From an uncultured Candidatus Saccharibacteria bacterium (GTDB lineage: Bacteria; Patescibacteriota; Saccharimonadia; Saccharimonadales; Saccharimonadaceae), in contig CAYNHE010000001.1 in the NCBI GenBank assembly GCA_964397215.1, forward strand, positions 5,075 through 69,074: 64,000 nucleotides of DNA, given 5' to 3'. The notes below the pieces were generated by a model, which was not told the DNA's origin, did no database searches, and saw nothing but the letters and a program-made list of their open reading frames with translations. The stretch's first letter is position 1, and each line of letters starts with the position of its first letter. Positions 40,030-57,658 of this stretch are shown piece after piece. Position numbers and translations under genes: made by a program.

Positions 40030-40491
40030 ATGGAGAAGAGAAGCGCGGTCCGCGTAGCGCTGTTCGACCAGAATGGCGCGGTCGCGATTATTAAGGTTGC
40101 AAAACTCCACTATTATAAAATTCCCGGTGGTGGCGTCGAGGTTGGCGAGTCAAATTATGACGCCGCAATACGCGAAACCCTGGAAGAGACTGGCTGCAAT
40201 TGCAAAATTATTGCGGAACTGGGCAGAATCGAGACGGACATTGCTGGTTGGAATATACATGATGTTTCGGATGGTTTTGCAGCGCTGATGGTGGGTGAGC
40301 GTGGTACACCAAGTTATGATGAATGGGAAAAGGAGCGCGGATTTAGCATAGAGTGGTTCAACGACCTCTCGGAAGCCATTGCGATGATTAGTAGCAACGA
40401 AGTTGAAGATCCTGACGCACGATTATTGCAGGAGCGAGATTTGGAATTTCTGAAGCGTGCAGTAAAAGTAGTCGAGTCCACGCATCAATAA
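40030..40491 (+). CDS. NUDIX hydrolase
   Basis: PGGGVEVGESNYDAAIRETLEETG Nudix box. Confidence 0.9.
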   Translation: MEKRSAVRVALFDQNGAVAIIKVAKLHYYKIPGGGVEVGESNYDAAIRETLEETGCNCKIIAELGRIETDIAGWNIHDVSDGFAALMVGERGTPSYDEWEKERGFSIEWFNDLSEAIAMISSNEVEDPDARLLQERDLEFLKRAVKVVESTHQ

Positions 40492-40531
40492 GCAAGACTA
40501 ATGTTGGTGTGGTCGCTGCGCACGGTTCTTC

Positions 40532-40723
40532 ATACTCCTGCAAACAGCGGAGAGAGAAACCGTGATAACGAGAATTCGGGCCGTTTGACGGATAAACGCC
40601 GGACCCATGAAAATCAAAGCGAAATGTACCTTCTGACGTAGCACCACTGCTTGACCAAGCAATGCCGGAAAAACCTGCTCCCCAAAAGAAACCGATTTTC
40701 AAATTAGTGTTACCGCTGCGCAT
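40532..40723 (-). repeat. Variable cassette C1: FISUMP/CLec C-terminal region, 63 codons
   Basis: MRSGNTNLKIGFFWGAGFSGIAWSSSGATSEGTFRFDFHGSGVYPSNGPNSRYHGFSLRCLQE followed by TAT instead of TAG. Confidence 0.85.
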
Positions 40724-40873
40724 GTAATTGAAACTAAATATGTTCTAAAAGCGCAAAAAACTATTAAAAATTGCCAAAAAATGCAAATTTTCTTATTTTT
40801 TTACGAACCTCGAAAAATTTAATTTTCCGAGGTTTACGACGCATCGCTTGTAGGTTACCATTTGCAGTGTGTT

Positions 40874-40968
40874 AGGTGATAAAAAATCGATTTTTATCAC
40901 CTGCTAGTTCGTAAGTAACAGAGGTGGAGTAGAAAATCTAGGTGATAAATTTTTAATTTTTCTCACCT
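40874..40968. repeat. Two 29-bp palindromes AGGTGATAAA-N9-TTT(A/C)TCACCT, 66 bp apart
   Basis: Copies at 40874-40902 and 40940-40968 in the spacer between divergent cassettes C1 and C2. Confidence 0.8.
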
Positions 40969-41033
40969 AAAGAAATTATGAAAAATCCGTATTTTTGACA
41001 AGATTTGGATCAAATTCCATGAAAAAGCATCTC

Positions 41034-41225
41034 GTGCGCAGCGGCTACACCTACATGGGCCTCGGTTTCTTGAGGTTCGCAGGCATCAGTGGCCTCTATT
41101 GGTCGCGTAGCGGCGTTGCCTCTACTACTGCGTACTACCTCCACTTCAATGCCTCTGGGGTGTACCCGTCGAACGGCCCGGCCAATCGTTACTACGGTTT
41201 CCCTCTCCGCTGTTTGCAGGAGTAT
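41034..41225 (+). repeat. Variable cassette C2
   Basis: VRSGYTYMGLGFLRFAGISGLYWSRSGVASTTAYYLHFNASGVYPSNGPANRYYGFPLRCLQE followed by TAT. Confidence 0.85.
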
Positions 41226-41243
41226 GAACTTTGCTTGAGCGAT

Positions 41244-42665
41244 TTACTTTCGTTTAGTTAGCACAATCAGATTCTCGATATGTGGCGTGCGTGGGAAGAA
41301 ATTGAAGGGTTGGATGAATTCTATTTGGTATTTTTCTTGGAGCATAGTAACGTCGCGTGCCTGTGTGATAGGATTGCACGAGAGGTAAATGATGCGCTCT
41401 GGCATGACTGCTAATAATTTTTCGATTAAGTCCTGATGGCACCCAGCGCGTGGCGGATCAAGAATCACGGTCTGGTCAGGCGCGATAAAATCAAGCGCCT
41501 CTTCAGATTTGGCAAGAACTGGGCGAGGGGTGGAGGCAACGCCATATGTTGCTTCTGGGGAGCTCTCGGAGCTTACGACCGGCGATTCAAGATTCCGAGA
41601 GAAACAAATGCTTGCATTTGCTTCCGAGGAATTGCAGAAGCGCGAGACGGCGAAGCCGGCGATGAGCGTAGGGCGCTTCGCGCCTGTAAAGACAGGTTGC
41701 GAAGACGCCCGGTCCTCAAAAGTAATACGCGATGCCATTTTTATCCCTTGTACATTCCTTTCCAACTCTTGATAGGCGGATTTATCACACTCGACCAGTG
41801 TTAATTCGTGGTCGCGAGCAATGGAAAGTCCGATGGTGCCGACGCCGGCATACAAATCAAGAACTTTACCAGGGAGCACCCATTTTTGCATTTCGCGTAG
41901 CGCAAGTTCGTAGACTGGCAAGTTAATTTGAAAGAAGCCATTAGGTGAATAACTGTAAGCTTGACCGAGAATCGTGTCGGTCAGATTGGCAAAAGTTGGG
42001 TGTTTCTGACCATTAACGAAGAGGCCGCCGCTAGTTTCACCAGCTTGGTTCGCTCGGAGGAGTAAACTTTGGTATTTGCGAGCGTCTTCGTGACGGTCGT
42101 TCAGGTCTTTAACAATTTCTTTAGCGCGAGCTAGGATTTCTGGACGTTCGATGCTTGACTCGCTGATCGGAATTTTACGATGGGAGCCACGCGCGTGGAA
42201 AGCCAGATGGATTCGCTGGTCATCATGGTCAAAATATAGCGCATATTCCATTTTATTACGATAATGATAATCTTGACCGTCCGTTACGACTGATTGCACT
42301 GTGAGACTGCCTAGTGCGAGATGCTGCTGGCGCAAAATTTCGACTACTAGCGCACGTTTGGTGGTGAGTTCGCAGTCGTAGGTCATGATTTGCCAAGGAG
42401 AAGTGGCGAGAAAAGCTTCGTCGCGCGGTTTAATGCGTTCCGGAGCAGGATTTTCGATTTCTAGAGCAATGCCTTCGAGATAAGTGCTTTTATCCTTGGT
42501 GATTTCGAATTTGGTGACGGTTTCACCGGGCAACGCATTCCAGAGCATGGCTTTCTTGCCGTTTGCGAGTGTGCCGAGCGCCTGTCCGCCGGGGATGATT
42601 TTAGCGATTTCGACAGAGTCGGTGGAGATTTTGGGCGCGCGAGGCTGATGAGATTTATTCCGCAT
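41244..42665 (-). CDS. RlmD/TrmA-family RNA (uracil-C5) methyltransferase carrying an in-frame ~60-aa insertion
   Basis: YRNKME, FFQIN, LDLYAGVGTIG, ILDPPRAG, YLSCNP, FPRTPHIE. Confidence 0.9.
   Translation of the reverse strand: MRNKSHQPRAPKISTDSVEIAKIIPGGQALGTLANGKKAMLWNALPGETVTKFEITKDKSTYLEGIALEIENPAPERIKPRDEAFLATSPWQIMTYDCELTTKRALVVEILRQQHLALGSLTVQSVVTDGQDYHYRNKMEYALYFDHDDQRIHLAFHARGSHRKIPISESSIERPEILARAKEIVKDLNDRHEDARKYQSLLLRANQAGETSGGLFVNGQKHPTFANLTDTILGQAYSYSPNGFFQINLPVYELALREMQKWVLPGKVLDLYAGVGTIGLSIARDHELTLVECDKSAYQELERNVQGIKMASRITFEDRASSQPVFTGAKRPTLIAGFAVSRFCNSSEANASICFSRNLESPVVSSESSPEATYGVASTPRPVLAKSEEALDFIAPDQTVILDPPRAGCHQDLIEKLLAVMPERIIYLSCNPITQARDVTMLQEKYQIEFIQPFNFFPRTPHIENLIVLTKRK
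41548..41728. mobile_element. Palindromic repeat element (REP/RPE/MITE-like), copy 1, inside the methyltransferase ORF
   Basis: Near-identical to 46791-46972 (reverse complement) and to 59552-59665. Confidence 0.8.
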
Positions 42666-44001
42666 ATTGCCAAACCTGTCCGTTTGCGGTATCTAGCACT
42701 GCGATACCACGTTTAAGAAGTTCTGCGCGTAGTTTGTCAGATTTTGCATAATCTTTTTGCTCGCGTGCGAGACGACGTTGCTCAAGTAGTGTTTTAGCAT
42801 CATCATCAATATCCTTGGCCGCATTGATTAATCCTAGCCCGAACAGTTGATCGATTTTTTGCCAGCAGGCGTAGCTTAAATCGTCGTCTTGGTCAATAAT
42901 TGCAAACGCCGCTGCCGAATTTAGATTATCATTCACTTCAGCCAGCACATTGTCGAAACAATCTTCGGTTCCCTCTTGGTTTTGCCAGTGGCGGACGATT
43001 TGGTTTATCCAGCCCAGGCGGCGAGTTTTGGCTGCGGCGAGACTAGCAAAGCTAAAATCGCGTTCAGTACGATAATTCCCTTGCAGCACCCACATTTTGT
43101 AGTCGAGCGGCGAAAAGCCTTTCTCAGCCAGTTGGTCTAGAGTCCAGCCATTGCCGAGGCTTTTAGAAATTTTTTCGCCGTCCACCGTCAAATGGTGGCA
43201 ATGCAACCAATAATTGGCGAGTTTTTTGCCGTAAGCGGCTTCACTCTGCGCGATTTCGTTAGTGTGATGCACCGGTACGTGGTCAACGCCTCCGGTGTGA
43301 ATATCGATTGGTTCCCCCAGTTCAGCATGAATAATACTGGAACATTCCAGATGCCAGCCCGGATAGCCCGGACGGCCCAGAAAATCCCAACGCATGGCGT
43401 GATCTTCGCCAGGTTTGATAAATTTCCAGACGGCAAAATCAGAAACATGTTTTTTCTCAGCGTTAAAATCGACGCGCTTGCCAGCTTCGAGTCCAGCTAG
43501 ATCCAATTTGGCAAAATCCGCATAGGTCGCAAATTTACTCGTGTCAAAATACAGGCCGTCAGTGGTTTCGTAGAGATACCCCTTTTCTAGCAAAGTTGTC
43601 ACGAGTGCCTCATCTTGGGCGATATAATCAGTCGCGCGCGCGATAATATCTGGTTCGACGAGATTAAGTGCGGCGATGCCTTTTATAAACTCGTTGCTGT
43701 AATAATCGGCGATTTGCCAGACGGTTTTGCCCTCGCGCTTGGCGCCTTTTTCGAGTTTATCCTCGCCTTCGTCACCATCGCTCGTTAGATGGCCAACGTC
43801 GGTGAGATTTAGCACTCTTTTTACTCCATAGCCGTTGGTTTTGAGAGTTCGCACCAGCAAATCCCAGTATACGTAGGCGGCATAGTTGCCGATGTGTGGC
43901 ATGGAATAAACCGTTGGGCCGCAAGTATAAATTTTTACTTCGGCCGGGTTAATAGGCTTAAATTCTTCAAGTTTGCGCGTGAGTGTGTTATATAGTTTCA
44001 T
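42655..44001 (-). CDS. cysS: Cysteinyl-tRNA synthetase
   Basis: MKLYNTLT start at 44001, CGPTVY, HIGN, PGWHLECS, HTGGVDH, KISKSLGN. Confidence 0.96.
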   Translation of the reverse strand: MKLYNTLTRKLEEFKPINPAEVKIYTCGPTVYSMPHIGNYAAYVYWDLLVRTLKTNGYGVKRVLNLTDVGHLTSDGDEGEDKLEKGAKREGKTVWQIADYYSNEFIKGIAALNLVEPDIIARATDYIAQDEALVTTLLEKGYLYETTDGLYFDTSKFATYADFAKLDLAGLEAGKRVDFNAEKKHVSDFAVWKFIKPGEDHAMRWDFLGRPGYPGWHLECSSIIHAELGEPIDIHTGGVDHVPVHHTNEIAQSEAAYGKKLANYWLHCHHLTVDGEKISKSLGNGWTLDQLAEKGFSPLDYKMWVLQGNYRTERDFSFASLAAAKTRRLGWINQIVRHWQNQEGTEDCFDNVLAEVNDNLNSAAAFAIIDQDDDLSYACWQKIDQLFGLGLINAAKDIDDDAKTLLEQRRLAREQKDYAKSDKLRAELLKRGIAVLDTANGQVWQYAE

Positions 44002-44851
44002 GATCAATCTCCCGTAAAGTTTTCTTAAGTTCGATGAGGATTTTGGTGCGCTTATGTGAAGAAACGTCATGATGCCCCATCACGCTAGCAAAACGCACGT
44101 GCGTATTATGATCGGCAACGCGCTTGAGGTTAGAATACATCACTAGCGGATCAAAATGCCCATGAATCAGCAAAGTTGGCGTTTTAATGTTGGTAAAAGT
44201 CTGGTAGTTTTTGCGATTCAGGATAATCTGGTCCATCGACTTGCCAAAAGCCGGCGTGCGCAAATATTTTGACCGAAAACTGCTAAAACGTTGGATGAAA
44301 TTAGCCAAGACTTCGACCGCTGGTTCTTCGGCAGCGATTTTTTGCAATGAACTGTAGGATTTAGTGTAGGCCTTGTCGGGCAGTTTGGCCAGCTCAGCAT
44401 TCATCAACACCGGTGGAGAAACCAGAATGAGTCGACAAATGTCAAATTTAGTCGGGAAATTCACCGCAAAATCCGCCGCAATCAGCGCCCCCATCGAATG
44501 ACCAATGAGGACTACGGGAGTTTTAATCCGGAATTTTTTCATAGTGCTTTCGAGCGCCTGCTCGTAATCGTGGTAGTCATAATCCAGCCAATCACTTTGC
44601 AAAGATTTACCAAAACCTAGCAAATCCAGCGCATAGAAACTAATTTCGTCCAGTTCGGGATTGCGGCTAAATTGGCGCATAGTAATCCGCCAGGTTTCTG
44701 AAGTAGCAGAGGTGCCGTGGAGAAAAATCACGGTGAGGCGAGGATTTTTGACTTTGCGCACGAAAAGTGGTTTCATCACAATCGGTCGATGTAGCATCTT
44801 GTGCCAAACGTAGGTTGTCAGGTTATAGAGTCCATTGCTTGACCAGGTCAC
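43988..44851 (-). CDS. Alpha/beta hydrolase
   Basis: FLHG, DLLGFGKS, GHSMG, IHGHFD. Confidence 0.88.
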   Translation of the reverse strand: MTWSSNGLYNLTTYVWHKMLHRPIVMKPLFVRKVKNPRLTVIFLHGTSATSETWRITMRQFSRNPELDEISFYALDLLGFGKSLQSDWLDYDYHDYEQALESTMKKFRIKTPVVLIGHSMGALIAADFAVNFPTKFDICRLILVSPPVLMNAELAKLPDKAYTKSYSSLQKIAAEEPAVEVLANFIQRFSSFRSKYLRTPAFGKSMDQIILNRKNYQTFTNIKTPTLLIHGHFDPLVMYSNLKRVADHNTHVRFASVMGHHDVSSHKRTKILIELKKTLREIDHETI

Positions 44852-45918
44852 GATGCTTGTTCCTTGAGTTTATCTGCGAAACCTTTGGGGAAACTAATTT
44901 TGTTGCCAGCGGTGCTAGGTTTGATTTCTGGTTCTGCGCTAGTGGTGGCTTTGGCGGCGAGTTTTGGCACGATTTTAATCAAATCTCGCACAACTTCGTC
45001 ATAACTGGTATCGTAAGTGCGGAAACCGGCCGCATAAGGGTGACCACCACCACCAAAATATCCGCTGATTTGGTCAGCAATCGGAATGGAAGTGCGGACT
45101 TTGCCGGTGACTTTACCGTCAGGATAAGTTTTGACTGCAACTGCGATTTCGACACCGGAGACTAGTCGCAGCTCTTCGAGAATTAGCACATTAGGATTAT
45201 ATTCGTCAGAGTAAGCCTGGATGTCTTCGAACGGAATGTGAATCGTGGCGAGTTTACCATCGAGATGATATTCGACGCGCTTAATTAAATCTGCCTTGTA
45301 ATCGAGAATGCGCGGAGATTTTTTCATGAATTCACGCCGACGTTCATCGAGTTCAGAAGGGTTGACGCCGAGTTCAATGAGTTCCGCCATAGTGCGCATC
45401 GTGTCAGCCGTCACACTAGCGCTGACTAAACCAAGCGTATCGCTCGCGATGGCATAATAAATTGCTTCCGCGGCGGCCAGTGGGATGGGTAGCTTCTCGG
45501 CTTTGGCGACTTGATAAATCAAATCCGCACAAGCTGGCATTACTTCGATAATTGATTCGTGTGGAAAGTCCAAATCATCAGGGGTCTCATGATGATCGAA
45601 AACAAAAACCGGTTTAGTATAAAGCGCGTTTTTAATCGCATCGTTTTCTAATAATTTTGACAAGAGGACGCTAGCCGCTGTATCCACGATAATATAAGCA
45701 TCTGCATCAAAGTCAAAATCAATCGAAACTCGCGACCATTCTTTGAAATAATGCAAATACTTGGGGATTTCTACTGGACAATAGAGCGAATTCTCGGTGT
45801 TCTGCAGAATGTAGTCGAGTGCAATGGCACTACCGAGTGAATCACCGTCTGGGTTCTCAGCTTGGATGATTGAAATGCGGTTTTTGCCATGCAAAAAATC
45901 AGAAAATTTATCGTACAT
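44848..45918 (-). CDS. DHH/DHHA1 phosphoesterase (NrnA-like)
   Basis: NPDGDSLGS, VDT, FDHH, SDT, GGGHPYAAG; ATG 45918. Confidence 0.9.
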   Translation of the reverse strand: MYDKFSDFLHGKNRISIIQAENPDGDSLGSAIALDYILQNTENSLYCPVEIPKYLHYFKEWSRVSIDFDFDADAYIIVDTAASVLLSKLLENDAIKNALYTKPVFVFDHHETPDDLDFPHESIIEVMPACADLIYQVAKAEKLPIPLAAAEAIYYAIASDTLGLVSASVTADTMRTMAELIELGVNPSELDERRREFMKKSPRILDYKADLIKRVEYHLDGKLATIHIPFEDIQAYSDEYNPNVLILEELRLVSGVEIAVAVKTYPDGKVTGKVRTSIPIADQISGYFGGGGHPYAAGFRTYDTSYDEVVRDLIKIVPKLAAKATTSAEPEIKPSTAGNKISFPKGFADKLKEQAS

Positions 45919-46014
45919 ATTATATATTATATGCCAAAGAGAAGAAAAAGGCAAATTGGATTATACCAGTAGTAAGTCTTTAAAAGCGTTAACACGTCTT
46001 CCTCGAACCGGGCA

Positions 46015-46704
46015 TCACTGTTTCTTCTTTTTGGTATTTTTCTTAGGGGTACGCTGAGATGGCGTTTGAGTTGGAAAAGCCTTGTAGTGGCGTTGTTTAA
46101 GCTTGCTTTTTTCGCCAAGAATTTCCCGAATGCGCTCGGAGATTTCTTCAGTCGCGTCACGTTTGGCTGTGTCAACGGTGACTTTATACACTGTGATAAG
46201 ATAGAGCGAAAATCCAACGTCGATTAATAACGCCATGAAAAGGACGATAGCCAAAATCTCCCAAATCCTAATTGGCAGAAGATCGAGAAGCCAAAAGAGA
46301 GTTGGGTTAACGAATTTAAGAATCAGCACGCCGGCTACGCCAAAACACAGCACCGAGCCAATACAAATCCGTCCATTGAGATTAAAGGGTTGCTCGGTGT
46401 AATCCCACCAACGAACATGAAACGCGATTTCCATCCACCAGCTAGTTAAATATTCCAGCAAAGCGCCACCAATCATGGAGACGCAGACGATTTCGATGAT
46501 GCCATCCGAACGACTACAAAGAAACGAAAGTAACAGCGCGCCAGTGCCATAAACTGGGCAAATTGGCCCGATGAGAAAGCCACGATTGATTAATTTCTTG
46601 CGATTCATGAGATTTACCAACACTTCTATCACCCAACCAGCAAAAGAGTAGAAGATAAAAATCAGAAACCAAGTTGCCAGAAAGTGAGGGATGGTGGATT
46701 GCAT
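46015..46704 (-). CDS. Putative ABC transporter permease (CmpB/DUF1113-like)
   Basis: GFLIGPICPVYG, RWWDYT, NLNGRIC. Confidence 0.8.
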   Translation of the reverse strand: MQSTIPHFLATWFLIFIFYSFAGWVIEVLVNLMNRKKLINRGFLIGPICPVYGTGALLLSFLCSRSDGIIEIVCVSMIGGALLEYLTSWWMEIAFHVRWWDYTEQPFNLNGRICIGSVLCFGVAGVLILKFVNPTLFWLLDLLPIRIWEILAIVLFMALLIDVGFSLYLITVYKVTVDTAKRDATEEISERIREILGEKSKLKQRHYKAFPTQTPSQRTPKKNTKKKKQ

Positions 46705-46777
46705 AGGGTTATTATATCATGAAAATTATGCTGAATGAAAATGCTTTTTATAAAACTGGTTTCTTATAAAACATATT

Positions 46778-46987
46778 CTAGTAATTGGCAGTATTACTTT
46801 TGAGGACCGGGCGTCTTCGCAACCTGTCTTCACAGGTGCGAAGACGCCCTGCGCTCATCGACGGCTGCGCCGTCTCGCGATTCTGCAATTCCTCGGAAGC
46901 AAATGCAAGCATTTGTTTCTCTCGGAATCTTGAACCGCCGGTCGTAAGCTCCGAGAGCTCCCCAGAAGCAACACTGCCAGTTACTAG
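46778..46987. mobile_element. Palindromic repeat element copy 2 (core 46791-46972) with 15-bp flanking inverted repeats
   Basis: CTAGTAATTGGCAGT ... ACTGCCAGTTACTAG (1 mismatch); internal hairpin GGGCGTCTTCGC-A-ACCTGT-CTTC-ACAGGT-GCGAAGACGCCC. Confidence 0.8.
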
Positions 46988-47115
46988 GACATGCTTCACA
47001 TTAATCTTGAAAAGGCACTCTAGACAACAGCATACTTAAACTAGAATAAAGTTTGAATTATATTAATAACTCAAGCGCAGTTTGCATTTTCTAAAATACT
47101 AAACAATTAAGCGAA

Positions 47116-47182
47116 GTCCATACTTTTTTGAGACTAAAGACTTGGCCTAAGCGGCGACAACGCGGTCTCAAAAAGTATGGAC
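47116..47182. repeat. Long hairpin downstream of cassette C3
   Basis: GTCCATACTTTTTTGAGAC / GTCTCAAAAAGTATGGAC arms; loop contains AAGACTTGGCCTAAGCGGC. Confidence 0.8.
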
Positions 47183-47190
47183 GAGCGCTC

Positions 47191-47382
47191 CTACTCCTGC
47201 AAACAGCGGAGAGAGAAACCGTAGAAACGAGCGCGTGGTTCAAGCGATAAAGATGTTGATCCAGCACCAAGTGCAACAAAGTAAGCGCTATCATCGTCAG
47301 TGCTATTACGAGACCAGTAATATCCGTTAATTCCTACGATTCTCAAGATGCCGCTAAACATGTCCGTATGGCCGCTGCGCAC
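47191..47382 (-). repeat. Variable cassette C3
   Basis: VRSGHTDMFSGILRIVGINGYYWSRNSTDDDSAYFVALGAGSTSLSLEPRARFYGFSLRCLQE*. Confidence 0.85.
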
Positions 47383-47390
47383 AATTCGTT

Positions 47391-47582
47391 CTACTCTTGC
47401 AAACAGCGGAGAGAGAAACCAAGGTAACGATAGGCTTGATTACTTGATACTTCAACATCTATATCACTGAATGAAAAACGGTATGCATTATAAGAATCAG
47501 CGCCAGTACGCGTCCAATAAGGCCCAGCCATGCCAACATATCCTAGAAAACCGTTACCTATGTGAGGTCGGCCGCTGCGCAC
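47391..47582 (-). repeat. Variable cassette C4 (tandem with C3, 8-bp gap)
   Basis: VRSGRPHIGNGFLGYVGMAGPYWTRTGADSYNAYRFSFSDIDVEVSSNQAYRYLGFSLRCLQE*. Confidence 0.85.
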
Positions 47583-47614
47583 GAGTGCTTTTTTGGCCCA
47601 ACCATCGCTTGCTG

Positions 47615-47714
47615 AAGTGTGCGCGGTTTTTCGATTTCTGCGCGTAGATTTTTGATGATTAACAGAGGTAGAACCGGAAAAAGTGTGTGCGGTTTTGCAA
47701 AAAGCGCGCGTAGA
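47615..47714. repeat. Two 34-bp imperfect direct repeats with palindromic cores, 66 bp apart
   Basis: AAGTGTGCGCGGTTTTTCGATTTCTGCGCGTAGA (47615-47648) and AAGTGTGTGCGGTTTTGCAAAAAGCGCGCGTAGA (47681-47714). Confidence 0.75.
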
Positions 47715-47726
47715 ATCAGCTACTTC

Positions 47727-47918
47727 GTGCGCAGCGGTAACATCTATCTAGGATACGGTCTCTTGAGGGCCGCAGACATCTACGCGTTTTACTGGTCATG
47801 CAGCGGCGGTATCTCCACTACCGTTTATAACCTCCACTTCATGGCTTCAGGAGTGTTCTCATCGCATGGCCCAGACTATCGTTACAACGGTTTCTCTCTC
47901 CGCTGTTTGCAGGAGTAG
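47727..47918 (+). repeat. Variable cassette C5
   Basis: VRSGNIYLGYGLLRAADIYAFYWSCSGGISTTVYNLHFMASGVFSSHGPDYRYNGFSLRCLQE*. Confidence 0.85.
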
Positions 47919-47930
47919 GAGCGCTTGCCC

Positions 47931-47988
47931 CTAATTTTCTGAAATATAAGACTTGGCCAAGCGGCCCGGAGCGATTTCAGAAAATTAG
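47931..47988. repeat. Perfect 15-bp hairpin downstream of cassette C5
   Basis: CTAATTTTCTGAAAT / ATTTCAGAAAATTAG; loop contains AAGACTTGGCCAAGCGGC. Confidence 0.8.
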
Positions 47989-48021
47989 AGGTTGCGCTTA
48001 GTTTTGTGTTATAATAACCAT

Positions 48022-49206
48022 ATGAATTTTGTGATAATTGGGTTAATTTTGGCGAATTTGGTACTTTTGGTTTTGCTTGTGCTTAGAAAACCAGTAGCGC
48101 GAACCGATACACGCGCTCTTGAGGAACGTTTAATCAGGATTGAAGGTGAGTTAGACAAGTTGACTCCTAAGATTGACACGGCTTTTCGCGATAATCGCAA
48201 GGAGATTGCTGATAATTTGCAGAACATTCAGCGCACGGTGGATACGCGCGTGCGGAGTTTGCAGGACGACAATTCCAAGAAACTCGAAGAAATGCGCCAG
48301 ACGGTGGATGAGAAGTTGCAGGCTTCGGTCGAGAAACGTTTTAACGAGAGTTTTAAGAACATTTCTACGCAGCTTACGCAAGTTTATACCGGCCTCGGCG
48401 AGATGAAAGCCCTCGCGAGCGATGTCGGCGGACTAAAAAAGGTGATGGAAGGCGTGAAAACCCGTGGAATTTATGGTGAAGTGCAGCTCGGTAATTTGAT
48501 TGAAGATTGTCTGAGCAAGGGGCAATATGTCGAAAATGTCATCACCAAACAAGGGAGCACGGACCGGGTGGAATTTGCGATTCGGATGCCAGGCAAGGAC
48601 ACAGCCGAAGTTTTCTTGCCGATTGATTCAAAATTTCCCATCGAGAATTATGCACGCCTCATCGAGGCCTATGATAAGGGTGACAAGGCGCAAATTTTGC
48701 ATTTTAGAAAAGCCCTAGAGGTTGATGTCAAGACGCAGGCCAAGAAAATTTCCACCAAATATCTCGATCCGCCAGCCACCACTGATTTTGGTGTGATGTT
48801 CGTGCCGACCGAGAGTTTGTACGCAGAAATTTTGCGCGTGCCAGGGCTCTCCGAAGAAGTGCGGCAGAAGTTTAACGTGACGATTTGTTCGCCGAGTACT
48901 CTGCCAGTGATTTTGTCGGGGCTTACCATGGGCTTTCGAAGCGTGGCGATTGAGCAGCGTTCGGCAGAAGTTTGGCAGACGCTTGGTAGCGTCAAGGCGC
49001 AGTTTAGTAAGTTTGGCGATTTGCTTGGCGCCGTTAAGAAAAAATTACAAGAAACCACTAACAAAATTTCTGATGCCGAGGTGACTTCGCGGAGTATCGA
49101 GCGCAAATTGCGTGATGTCGAAGTTTTGCCAGAGACCGAATCGAAACCAACCCTCAGCAGCCAGACATCAGCCCTAAGTGATCAAATTTCTGTTGAAGTC
49201 GAGTAG
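48022..49206 (+). CDS. rmuC: DNA recombination protein RmuC
   Basis: N-terminal TM and coiled coil, KTRGIYGEVQL, LPIDSKFP, MFVPTESLY, SPSTL; ATG 48022. Confidence 0.92.
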   Translation: MNFVIIGLILANLVLLVLLVLRKPVARTDTRALEERLIRIEGELDKLTPKIDTAFRDNRKEIADNLQNIQRTVDTRVRSLQDDNSKKLEEMRQTVDEKLQASVEKRFNESFKNISTQLTQVYTGLGEMKALASDVGGLKKVMEGVKTRGIYGEVQLGNLIEDCLSKGQYVENVITKQGSTDRVEFAIRMPGKDTAEVFLPIDSKFPIENYARLIEAYDKGDKAQILHFRKALEVDVKTQAKKISTKYLDPPATTDFGVMFVPTESLYAEILRVPGLSEEVRQKFNVTICSPSTLPVILSGLTMGFRSVAIEQRSAEVWQTLGSVKAQFSKFGDLLGAVKKKLQETTNKISDAEVTSRSIERKLRDVEVLPETESKPTLSSQTSALSDQISVEVE

Positions 49207-54831: not shown

Positions 54832-55804
54832 ACTCGGTAGCCTTATAATGTTAGTTGGTAGTTGGCCTGACTTGGTTTGATCGGGGTTTTATTTGTTATC
54901 GAATTTTGGCACTGAGAGAATGAACTCGGTGCCAATTTTTATTATTGTAAAGTTAAACATCTTTGAGTAATCCAGACATGTTCAGCACAGTTTACCTCCT
55001 AATAAACTACTTGTGCTTTTGAAATTAATTTGCTAAAATAAAGGTACGTAAAATTGTTAGAAAAAGTTACGATGATTTATTGCTCTCTACTTAGGTAGTG
55101 AGCAATAATGGGTTTAATGCGCCATTCGACGCATATGAGCCAGAGTAAAAATCTCATCATTCCATCTCCTTTCCCACCACACTCTACAATTTAACGAACA
55201 GAGGTCTAGACCACTCTATTTCTCAGTATACCCTATTTTTGCGAGGTCGCAGAATCGAAATGTCGAGTTACTTAATAGAGTGTTAAGTAACTGGCAATTT
55301 CGTATTTTTTACCCCTGTTAAATTATTACGAGAATTTTTGGCACGATTTCGCTCATGTAAAACCAGAAAAATCACTTGCATTATCAAAATTCATGCTATA
55401 ATTAGATTGCAATAGTTCAGTAAAAATAAGCAATCATGTTTATTTTGTTTGTAATATAAAATTCACATATCAAGTGCAGAATGGGTGTCATGAGAAATTC
55501 AGGAAGCACTTGATGGAAGTCATGATTGTCTTGCTGGACTATTGCACTCGTGGCGCCCATTTTTGTTGCGCTGCCAAGTCTCTAACTTCTGGCCGGATGT
55601 ATATGAGAAAACTACTAGGGTTAGGCTCTAGGTTGGTTTGGATTTATTGTACCTCGAAAACGCGGTTTCGGTATTTTGCTAGTAGGATATAATACCGAGA
55701 TACTGGTTGTCCTCAGTATAAGACGTGTTCTCTTAAATCCATAAGCCTAGACCTAATCCAGTAGTGATAGATATCAATATACTTAAACCATGGAGTAAGT
55801 TCAT

Positions 55805-57658
55805 ATGCTTAGAAGAAATATTAACTTTAATCTGATAGGATATATCAGTGTAGGGATACTTGGTGTCGTGGCGATAGCGGCATGTTTACCCACCACCACT
55901 AGCCGCGCTTCCGCCGCTCCCCTCACTACCACGGCTGGGGTCGCCATTACGGCTAATAGTATGGCTACGGTAGCCATTAGCGTTGACGAACAAGTAACTA
56001 TCGATATTACACCCACCTCAAGCCGTAATGGCGACTTCATGAGTGGTGTAAGTAATGTGCATGTCTCTACTAATAATACGTCTGGCTATAGTCTATATAT
56101 GTCAGCCGTGAATGAGACTGGTAATTTGGAACCTATTACTACTAATGCTGATAGTAAAGCCATTACTAACCTTTCTGTAGATACTCTTGGCACTAACTTC
56201 ACTGGCAATACTTGGGGTTATAACTTAAGTAAAGTAACTAGCGCTAATACTATTAGTAGCAATGAGGGTAGGAGTGTAGAAGAGAGTGTAGAAGAGAGTG
56301 TAGAAGAGAATGTAGGAGGAGAAAGTGCAGGAAGAGCTAGTAGCAGCTCTGCTGCTACTAGTCTCACCTATTCTGCGGTTCCGACTAATGCTACTACGGC
56401 TATTTATACCACTGACTCAGCTAACCTAGAGAATAGTGATGACTACTACTTAACCTTTGGTGTAAACATTGATAATACTCTTCCAGCTGGTACTTATACT
56501 AACTCTGTCCTAGTCTCTGCGGTAGCTAATCCTATTACTATATCAGAACTATCTCAGCTTACCTACATGCAAGACATGACTAGTAGTATTTGTACTAATA
56601 CTATGGAACATGCCACCAAACAACTAGTTGATACTCGTGATGGTAAGAAATACTGGGTAGCGAAACTTAAGGATGGGAATTGTTGGATGACACAGAACCT
56701 AGCCTTGGATTTATCGAAAGAAAAGACTTTGACGAGTAGCGATACGGACCTAGAGTTTGTGCCAAAAAATGATGACGGAAGTGATTATGAGTTTACGCCA
56801 GAAAGTGACACCAATGAATATGCCTCGTTTAGTGAGGCCCAAAGCGTAAAAGACGCCTCATGGAATTTTGGAAATCTTATCATGGGCACCCCGACTTTTA
56901 GAAAACAATGTATGCCGTATGCGATGTCTATAAGTCAGATTATTGAAAACTGCGCGTCGGTGGGAGTTTATGATGTATCTGGTGATTGGAAAGCGACTTA
57001 CCAGTCCAAACCCGGCACATTGACTCTGTTAAACGGTCAAACTTATCCAACAGATTTCGCTTCAAATATTAGCCCTAATGATGCATATATTATATCTGTT
57101 GACCCAAATAATAAAACCTACGACGCACACTATCTTTTTGGTAGCACCTATTTCTTCCAGGCTGCTGCAGCCGGTACTAATACAAAAGTGACTGAGGCCA
57201 TGAGTGCAGTATCTGGTAGTATCTGTCCGAAGGGCTGGCAATTACCAAATTCGGGACGATATACTGCAGAGATTGCCGGTAGTGACACGAGTTTAATAGA
57301 AAAACCTTTAGACAGAGAAAAAAGTTTTTATCGATTACTACTTGCTTATGGTTATCCAGAGAATACACAGTATGAAGTTATTAGTAACGGCGGACAAACC
57401 AACATGTTATACGGAGCAAATCAGAATATTAACGCTGATCCATTTTATTTCTTCGCCCCTGGCTCTATTAATTTTGTTCGTGGCGTAGTGGGTATCGGCT
57501 CGCATATCTATTTTACATCGGCAACCGCTCTAAACACTATGAACAGGTTAGCGTTCTATAGTGGAATTAAAAATTTTGCGCAAGGAGAATTCGTCATTAA
57601 ACCTGCTAACGGAGATGGTGGTTTATATAGCATGCCAGTCCGTTGCCTTGCTCGCTAA
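55805..57658 (+). CDS. FISUMP (Fibrobacter succinogenes major paralogous) domain surface protein
   Basis: Signal/TM N-terminus; YMQDMT, LVDTRDGKKYWVAKLKDGNCWMTQNLAL, SICPKGWQLP, terminal PVRCLAR. Confidence 0.85.
   Translation: MLRRNINFNLIGYISVGILGVVAIAACLPTTTSRASAAPLTTTAGVAITANSMATVAISVDEQVTIDITPTSSRNGDFMSGVSNVHVSTNNTSGYSLYMSAVNETGNLEPITTNADSKAITNLSVDTLGTNFTGNTWGYNLSKVTSANTISSNEGRSVEESVEESVEENVGGESAGRASSSSAATSLTYSAVPTNATTAIYTTDSANLENSDDYYLTFGVNIDNTLPAGTYTNSVLVSAVANPITISELSQLTYMQDMTSSICTNTMEHATKQLVDTRDGKKYWVAKLKDGNCWMTQNLALDLSKEKTLTSSDTDLEFVPKNDDGSDYEFTPESDTNEYASFSEAQSVKDASWNFGNLIMGTPTFRKQCMPYAMSISQIIENCASVGVYDVSGDWKATYQSKPGTLTLLNGQTYPTDFASNISPNDAYIISVDPNNKTYDAHYLFGSTYFFQAAAAGTNTKVTEAMSAVSGSICPKGWQLPNSGRYTAEIAGSDTSLIEKPLDREKSFYRLLLAYGYPENTQYEVISNGGQTNMLYGANQNINADPFYFFAPGSINFVRGVVGIGSHIYFTSATALNTMNRLAFYSGIKNFAQGEFVIKPANGDGGLYSMPVRCLAR
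56273..56320 (+). repeat. 12-bp tandem repeat AGTGTAGAAGAG x3 plus one degenerate unit (SVEE)
   Basis: Read directly; in-frame within the FISUMP gene. Confidence 0.9.

Follow-up and report, generated by a model that had tools for sequence, protein, structure and literature searches.

A hairpin-core-hairpin module in the spacers between divergent lectin-tip cassettes of an uncultured Saccharibacteria bacterium

Two loci in a 64,000-nt stretch of genomic DNA from an uncultured Candidatus Saccharibacteria bacterium (assembly GCA_964397215.1, contig CAYNHE010000001.1, positions 5,075 to 69,074; hereafter the window, with position 1 as its first letter) carry short coding cassettes that read outward from a central spacer. 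Spacer 1 (40724-41033, 310 nt) separates the divergent starts of the cassettes c1m and c1p, and spacer 2 (47583-47726, 144 nt) those of c2m1 and c2p. What the two spacers truly have in common is one copy each of a module of about 100 nt, i.e. a hairpin, 11-16 nt, the core YTAACAGRGGTAGA, 9-13 nt and a second hairpin. The module recurs in six further cassette spacers, its stems covary, it occurs in cassette spacers only, and the two loci that carry it are insertions. No other conserved non-coding feature was found between cassette starts, and the module is undescribed in Rfam and in the literature searched. Our tentative preference is to regard it as a structure-specific cis element of the cassette system, the core of which would mimic the inverted cassette 3' end and which would serve the machinery that copies or installs cassettes.

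An earlier note on this DNA described the two spacers as homologous and listed the words and palindromes that they share. The latter are all present: CATCGCTTG at 40842 and 47603, TCGATTT at 40887 and 47631, and TAACAGAGGT at 40916 and 47660, the last two words having the same offset of 6744. Each spacer holds two dyad units 66 nt apart (D11 at 40873/40939 in spacer 1, D8 at 47615/47681 in spacer 2), those of locus 2 being weak palindromes with 6-7 Watson-Crick pairs and 3 G-T appositions each, and inverted GTGCGCAGCGG motifs are found at both edges of each spacer. Homology of the whole spacers, in turn, was not borne out. Their local alignment scores 21, as against 18.0 +/- 2.6 for shuffled sequences (69 of 500 shuffles were as good), and the offset of 6744 is not special, since 51 of 144 bases are identical at this offset and up to 53 at others. 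A common 9-mer occurs in 11% of the shuffled spacers and a common 10-mer in 2.8%. A 10-mer and a 7-mer on one diagonal were seen in 1 of 3000 shuffles, hence the occurrence of TCGATTT and TAACAGAGGT in register is not due to chance. The word CATCGCTTG was considered as a common signal and rejected, as words of this kind are expected in 11% of shuffles; it lies on a different diagonal and is absent from the six other modules, and is therefore chance or local. In spacer 1 it is part of a segment (40806-40857) that also holds an extra hairpin, AACCTCG...CGAGGTT (40806-40834), and that has a read depth 5-10x that of single-copy sequence. In other words, the similarity resides in the module, and the spacers as wholes are not alike.

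Eight spacers could be aligned on the core, two from the window and six from five metagenome contigs (L047, L048, L054, L055 and, with two spacers, L056a and L056b, L056); the additional ones came from scanning metagenomes for the cassette end and from three look-ups of contigs. The module strand is the one on which the core reads TAACAGRGGTAGA flanked by two stem-loops. At locus 1, on the forward strand, the first hairpin (HP1, 40874-40902) has a 12-bp stem with AGGTGATAAAAA arms centred at -28 from the core, the conserved core (40916-40928) reads TAACAGAGGTGGA, and the second hairpin (HP2, 40940-40968) is centred at +38. At locus 2, likewise on the forward strand, HP1 (47618-47646) has GC-rich arms with 7 Watson-Crick pairs and 3 G-T appositions and is again centred at -28, the conserved core (47660-47672) reads TAACAGAGGTAGA, and HP2 (47686-47712) is centred at +39. 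The core is 13 nt long; the exact word TAACAGRGGT is present in 6 of the 8 cassette spacers and a one-mismatch variant in the other two (L054 and L056b). Elsewhere in the window the exact core occurs once, at 55311 on the reverse strand, without hairpins, and it was not found in the other fetched loci.

The common 66-bp spacing of the palindromes pointed out in the earlier note is a feature of half of the copies. The hairpin centres are at -28/-29 and +38/+39, i.e. 66-68 nt apart, in the two window copies, L047 and L056a. They are at -23/-24 and +34 in L054 and L055 (57-58 nt apart) and at -28.5 and +51.5 in L048; L056b, with a poorly defined hairpin, also deviates. The module is directional: on the core strand the upstream neighbour is a diverging cassette start in all eight modules, and the downstream neighbour is a cassette start in seven, the L056b module being located between two tandem cassettes. 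In L056a the hairpins abut both cassette starts. Spacer 2 and L048 have a T5 run directly after HP1 and an A5 run directly before HP2. Conservation of the core extends over three cassette subtypes.

The stems, on the other hand, differ between loci (AGGTGATAAA, GTGCGCGG, AAACCTATAC, AAACCCTAAAG, GTGGTAAA and others), and each is self-complementary. Within a locus HP1 and HP2 tend to be similar (76-100% identity), and they are unrelated to those of other loci. Pairing and covariation were evaluated on the four in-register copies only. Among these, all 12 pairs of helix 1 are changed on both sides with 85% of the cells paired, and the whole structure is 77% paired, whereas shuffles give 60.6% (none of 500 reached 77%) and slid partners 35-59%. 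A covariance model built from the four copies recovers the untrained copies of L048 (E 0.043), L055 (E 0.046) and L054 (E 0.28). It detects no further credible site in 212 kb plus 196 kb, covering the window, syntenic relatives and cassette loci of Rikenella (the latter 196 kb); the module is missing from about 400 kb of other sequence. The Rikenella loci are contigs of metagenome-assembled genomes (L001-L032, e.g. L008:306-5569) of GC-rich mouse-gut Bacteroidota, where up to 11 cassettes ending in GFPLRCLQE form tandem same-strand arrays among housekeeping genes. We note that the search of genome contigs relied on a narrow peptide pattern, GF[SP]LRCLQE, and that most of its matches were from Rikenella.

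Variation within the sequencing runs follows the same tendency. Spacer 2 has at least four paralogs or variants (86-98% identity), and 3 of their 4 stem changes convert a G-T apposition to a Watson-Crick pair (47619 G>A, 47639 T>C and 47644 G>A). The suggestion that conserved geometry with changed arms denotes a structure-dependent site has thus gained ground: the layout recurs in six more spacers, the replaced stems still pair, and the paralogs move from G-T to Watson-Crick. On the core strand G-T appositions outnumber A-C appositions by 9 to 5 in all hairpins, and by 9 to 2 without the L056b hairpin, which is a weak hint that the core strand is the one that folds. In runs X1 and X4 a contig of 555 nt (386 nt in X4) corresponds to 47570-47915; its spacer has 3 differences to spacer 2 in 138 nt, and the flanking cassettes are of the same length with interiors less than 80% identical to c2m1 and c2p. 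The contig, which is of low depth, comes from a paralogous locus or else from a strain in which the interiors were exchanged.

The core region looks like the invariant cassette 3' end in reverse complement. Its alignment scores add up to 107, whereas shuffles give 88.7 +/- 6.5 (8 of 1000 reached 107), and the L056b alignment extends over 22, mostly identical, columns. The invariant 3' part reads CTCCGYTG... where the degenerate core matches it in inverted form. Given this resemblance, the core may pair with the cassette end or share its recogniser.

The window contains five cassettes of 63 codons and a remnant. At locus 1, c1m (40532-40723, reverse strand) encodes MRSG...GFSLRCLQE, with no stop immediately after LQE, and c1p (41034-41225, forward strand) encodes VRSG...GFPLRCLQE; a 5' cassette remnant of about 35 nt (40490-40523, reverse strand) lies 200 nt downstream of the c1m start. 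At locus 2, c2m1 (47391-47582) and c2m2 (47191-47382, 63 codons and a stop) are in tandem on the reverse strand, with an 11-nt linker and a period of 200 nt, which is not a multiple of 3, and c2p (47727-47918) is on the forward strand. All cassettes have a GTG or ATG start of their own, and most have a stop as well. The five are 33-63% identical as proteins, and their nucleotide ends are invariant, with GTGCGCAGCGG at the start, i.e. the first codons (VRSG) of every cassette including the tandem ones, and GGTTTCTCTCTCCGCTGTTTGCAGGAG at the end. Cassette ends form inverted repeats of 74-80 nt at the locus borders. Rodent-gut runs containing this stretch cover the cassette 3' end at 100-130x the depth of the flanking single-copy sequence, and parts of the spacers at 2-10x.

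A profile of the five cassettes gave 2377 protein matches, including stand-alone 63-residue open reading frames (ORFs), tandem arrays and giant proteins. In matches such as P0016 (E 2e-23), P0015 and P0013 the cassette-like stretch falls on positions 128-187 of Fib_succ_major (PF09603) and on Lcl_C (PF07603), so the cassette corresponds to the C-terminal third of a FISUMP/Lcl_C lectin-type domain; the homology is transitive, via such matches, as direct Pfam and NCBIfam scans of the cassettes gave no match. Only the last ~60 of the ~187 positions of the full domain are present, and the cassettes have neither the N-terminal two thirds of the domain nor a signal peptide. Exact-protein look-ups of P0019, P0001 and c2m1 returned no record, and a scan of viral contigs for the cassette end gave no match. 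Long hairpins follow c2m2 (47118-47170) and c2p (47928-47991), with unrelated stems, a common loop (AAGACTTGGCC.AGCGGC) and a depth of ~15x single-copy; they show the same pattern as the spacer module, i.e. variable stems with a conserved unpaired part.

Both loci are set in an otherwise conserved neighbourhood. The genes identified around them are those for LysRS, Nudix, RumA, CysRS, a hydrolase, a DHH protein, CmpB, RmuC, MetK and EF-G, and a neighbouring ORF of 392 aa has no Pfam match. The order from LysRS to RmuC (LysRS, Nudix, RumA, CysRS, hydrolase, DHH, CmpB, RmuC) is kept in relatives with 88-92% identical RmuC, in which only 74 nt separate Nudix from RumA and 44-50 nt separate CmpB from RmuC. 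As both cassette loci are missing from these syntenic relatives, they are insertions. No target-site duplication was seen at the locus borders. The possibility that the arms were copied from a local terminator by such a duplication was discarded, the intergenic hairpin of the relatives L033 and L034 being unrelated to the locus 1 arms. Relatives at 91-95% identity have, upstream of RmuC, one reverse-strand cassette, a 30-nt gap and a rearranged remnant. In detail, L039 (160-260) and L040 contain at the locus 2 site the reverse-strand cassette, the gap, a bare GTGCGCAG start and then GCAAACAGCGTAGTA, the latter stretch being intermediate between the inverted cassette end and the module core.

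The following picture would be consistent with these observations. Two stem-loops would form on the strand reading TAACAGRGGTAGA, the stems being free in sequence and fixed in position, and the 13-nt core would be held unpaired between them. The core would repeat, in inverted and degenerate form, the part of the cassette 3' end that varies least, and would pair with that end or share its factor. The module would then be a handle that marks a cassette locus for machinery that copies, installs or exchanges headless lectin-tip cassettes. This machinery would most likely be a reverse transcriptase (RT) of the type found in diversity-generating retroelements (DGRs), encoded elsewhere in the genome, and the module would most likely act single-stranded, either as an RNA leader transcribed towards the downstream cassette or as an extruded DNA hairpin.

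A DGR link is plausible. DGR targets use the Fib_succ_major/Lcl_C-type fold class (PMC5758913), and the window shows the arrangement of a DGR target, i.e. a variable C terminus of C-type-lectin type, a conserved 3' block (GGTTTCTCTCTCCGCTGTTTGCAGGAG, invariant) and then a hairpin, as hairpins follow c2m2 and c2p. Target recognition by the BPP-1 DGR requires the initiation of mutagenic homing sequence (IMH) and a downstream hairpin, of which the stem structure is needed and the stem sequence is not; the unpaired part is sequence-dependent, and the upstream sequence is dispensable (PMC3240598). Like the BPP-1 target signal (IMH and hairpin/cruciform; Guo et al. 2011, PMC3240598), the module is a structure-dependent cis element beside a variable cassette of C-type-lectin type, in which stem structure matters, stem sequence may vary and the unpaired part is sequence-specific. 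On its antisense strand a motif resembling the cassette 3' end is followed by a hairpin about 13 nt on. The design principle matches, the position does not. BPP-1 has one hairpin after the IMH, whereas here two hairpins surround the core. Moreover, no RT, template repeat (TR) or adenine signature is shown here, and the cassettes are headless and number about 100.

The comparison can be extended to the template RNA. In DGRs this RNA comprises the 3' end of avd, TR and a spacer, Sp, that lies 3' of TR, and the segments flanking TR are structured. By analogy, a folded non-coding RNA beside a cassette-length repeat would recruit and position an RT, and the G-T bias of the module would fit a transcript running towards the downstream cassette. 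Unlike Sp, however, the module is 5' of the cassette; the cassettes downstream of it contain little adenine (14-19% A), Rfam has no match, and the pairing of spacer and cassette tail is no better than in shuffles. A more specific version of the reading would have the module represent a new class of cis element that licenses copying or installation by RT, either as the leader of an A-poor, largely non-mutagenic template RNA or as a landing pad with a core that imitates the cassette 3' end in inverted form; taken as a whole, this proposal is unlikely.

Several observations weigh against the preferred reading of the module as an element of the copying machinery. The module is known from only eight copies, at least three of which are off the 66-nt geometry. 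The RNA fold of the whole spacer of locus 2 barely beats shuffles (z -1.2), and a palindrome alone fits RNA, single-stranded DNA, a cruciform or a dimer-binding site equally. No RT is encoded in the 64 kb of the window. Among 20 ordered pairs of window cassettes there are no adenine-specific mismatches (fraction at A 0.12-0.35), nor is there a TR/VR pair (VR, variable repeat) differing at template adenines; every window cassette is A-poor (14-21% A), although a template may lie elsewhere. No variants within a sample are seen in the cassette interiors of X2 and X3, and the locus was found in no metatranscriptome searched. Duplex energies of the spacer with the cassette 3' flank, which are a crude test, are no better than those of shuffles. 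Finally, no -35/-10 pair was found at a conserved position among the eight copies.

Other explanations of the module were considered. The whole unit of reverse-strand cassette, module and forward-strand cassette could be a mobile foldback element, with the cassettes as long inverted terminal repeats and the module providing hairpins or cruciforms and a core cleaved or nicked by an HUH nuclease, transposase or recombinase. Both loci are indeed whole-unit insertions absent in relatives, with the 74-80-nt inverted repeats of the cassette ends at their borders, and the hairpin centres are A/T-rich and often self-complementary, which favours cruciform extrusion. Single-strand transposons have hairpin-guided cleavage sites, and the succession of hairpin, ~14 nt, conserved motif, ~12 nt and hairpin recalls them. 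A recombinase or another structure-specific DNA enzyme may act on the hairpins. However, there is no transposase or HUH gene among the identified genes around the loci, the borders lack a target-site duplication, the L056b module is located between tandem cassettes of the same orientation, and G-T appositions outnumber those of A-C, which points to a single strand. We consider this explanation rather unlikely. The module could also be a leftover with no present function, in which the core stems from an internally deleted, oppositely oriented cassette and the hairpins from a duplicated flanking hairpin. Such an origin would account for the resemblance of the core to the reverse complement of the cassette 3' end, for the rearranged remnant GTGCGCAG...GCAAACAGCGTAGTA at the same site in L039/L040 and for the likeness of HP1 and HP2 within most loci. 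It is distinctly improbable in view of the compensatory nature of the stem changes, of the same geometry where stems and linkers have no common sequence, and of the persistence of the core across three cassette subtypes.

Two further possibilities concern the expression of the cassettes. An ordinary divergent control region, with promoters, leaders or face-to-face terminators for small cassette ORFs, would fit the presence of separate GTG/ATG starts and, mostly, separate stops in the cassettes; in spacer 2 TAGAAT is found 10 nt ahead of the c2p start, in L048 TATGAT is found 4 nt ahead of its start, and the T5 and A5 runs of both copies would suit terminators. Yet the eight copies have no -35/-10 pair in a conserved position, the L056a hairpins leave no room for a promoter, the 200-nt tandem period is no multiple of 3, and the products would lack two thirds of the domain as well as a signal peptide; on balance such a region is improbable. 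A sigma-70 promoter in the core itself (TTAACA as -35, or TGnTA on the antisense strand) was rejected, as it has no consistent partner hexamer. The earlier note had proposed, as one of its options, an invertible control element bounded by GTGCGCAGCGG. In such a switch the spacer would be turned over between the 11-nt inverted repeats by a site-specific recombinase, which would aim a promoter at either cassette. The module is directional and inverted repeats of 11-15 nt are present at the edges of both spacers, as in E. coli fimS or Bacteroides invertons, in which short inverted repeats bound intergenic segments of 150-300 bp. In contrast to those switches, the repeats are coding starts that belong to every cassette, there is no consistent promoter, and no site-specific recombinase is among the identified genes around the loci; RmuC is nearby but equally present in relatives lacking the loci. 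The contigs of seven runs (X1-X5, X7, X8), which can drop rare forms, show one orientation only; joints to the opposite strand are absent at 40723/41034 and at 47582/47727. An invertible switch is accordingly an extremely improbable explanation.

The module differs from other known structured elements as well. A search of Rfam 15 gave no match at gathering score in the window, and with E up to 10 only chance hairpin matches on both loci, which excludes a known structured RNA family. Integron attC sites and the repetitive extragenic palindromes and mosaic elements (REP/BIME) are also dispersed sites conserved in fold over sequence, and attC is likewise tied to cassettes. Here, however, there are no R/L boxes, no GTTRRRY core and no integrase or RAYT gene seen, and the module consists of two separate hairpins around a conserved single-stranded core. 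With a period of 66 nt, the two partly palindromic units (25-30 nt) recall mini-CRISPR-like units. This candidate was dismissed, as near-identical repeats with a variable spacer and cas genes were not found: the two units of a window locus agree at 76-80%, those of the other locus in the same genome are unrelated, the interval corresponding to the "spacer" is the conserved part, and no cas genes were seen.

Some further features of the window are mentioned here for completeness. A palindromic element of ~180-260 nt (41472-41728) is inserted in frame in the RumA-type methyltransferase, which has 473 aa as compared with 387-407 aa in the relatives L033 and L034. A second, inverted copy, 96% identical, lies beside locus 2 (46791-46974), the depth of the element is ~10x single-copy, and a further relative, L037, carries it at the same RumA site in the opposite orientation. 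A 617-aa protein (55805-57658, forward strand) has an N-terminal membrane segment, the motifs CWMTQNL and CPKGWQLPN and the end ...MPVRCLAR; it gives a faint Fib_succ_major Pfam match (E 0.029) and, by hhalign, no match to the cassettes. The long region upstream of it (54832-55804) holds the lone other exact core word (55311, reverse strand) and no hairpins. Ahead of RmuC, TGTGTTATAAT is located just 6 nt before the ATG at 48022 (47985-48024), as it is in relatives, which suggests extended -10 promoters and near-leaderless mRNAs in this lineage.

Gut Saccharibacteria are tiny epibionts that depend on surface recognition of their host. About 100 truncated lectin-tip cassettes with invariant ends are a large investment for so small a genome, and the module, which behaves like a signal read by its structure, offers a concrete and testable handle on them. 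If it is part of a retroelement, the known target and template signals of DGRs would be extended to the 5' side of the repeat. A cis element licensing RT-mediated copying, if true, would account for the spread of about 100 cassettes with invariant ends, and for the exchange of their interiors, in a very small genome.

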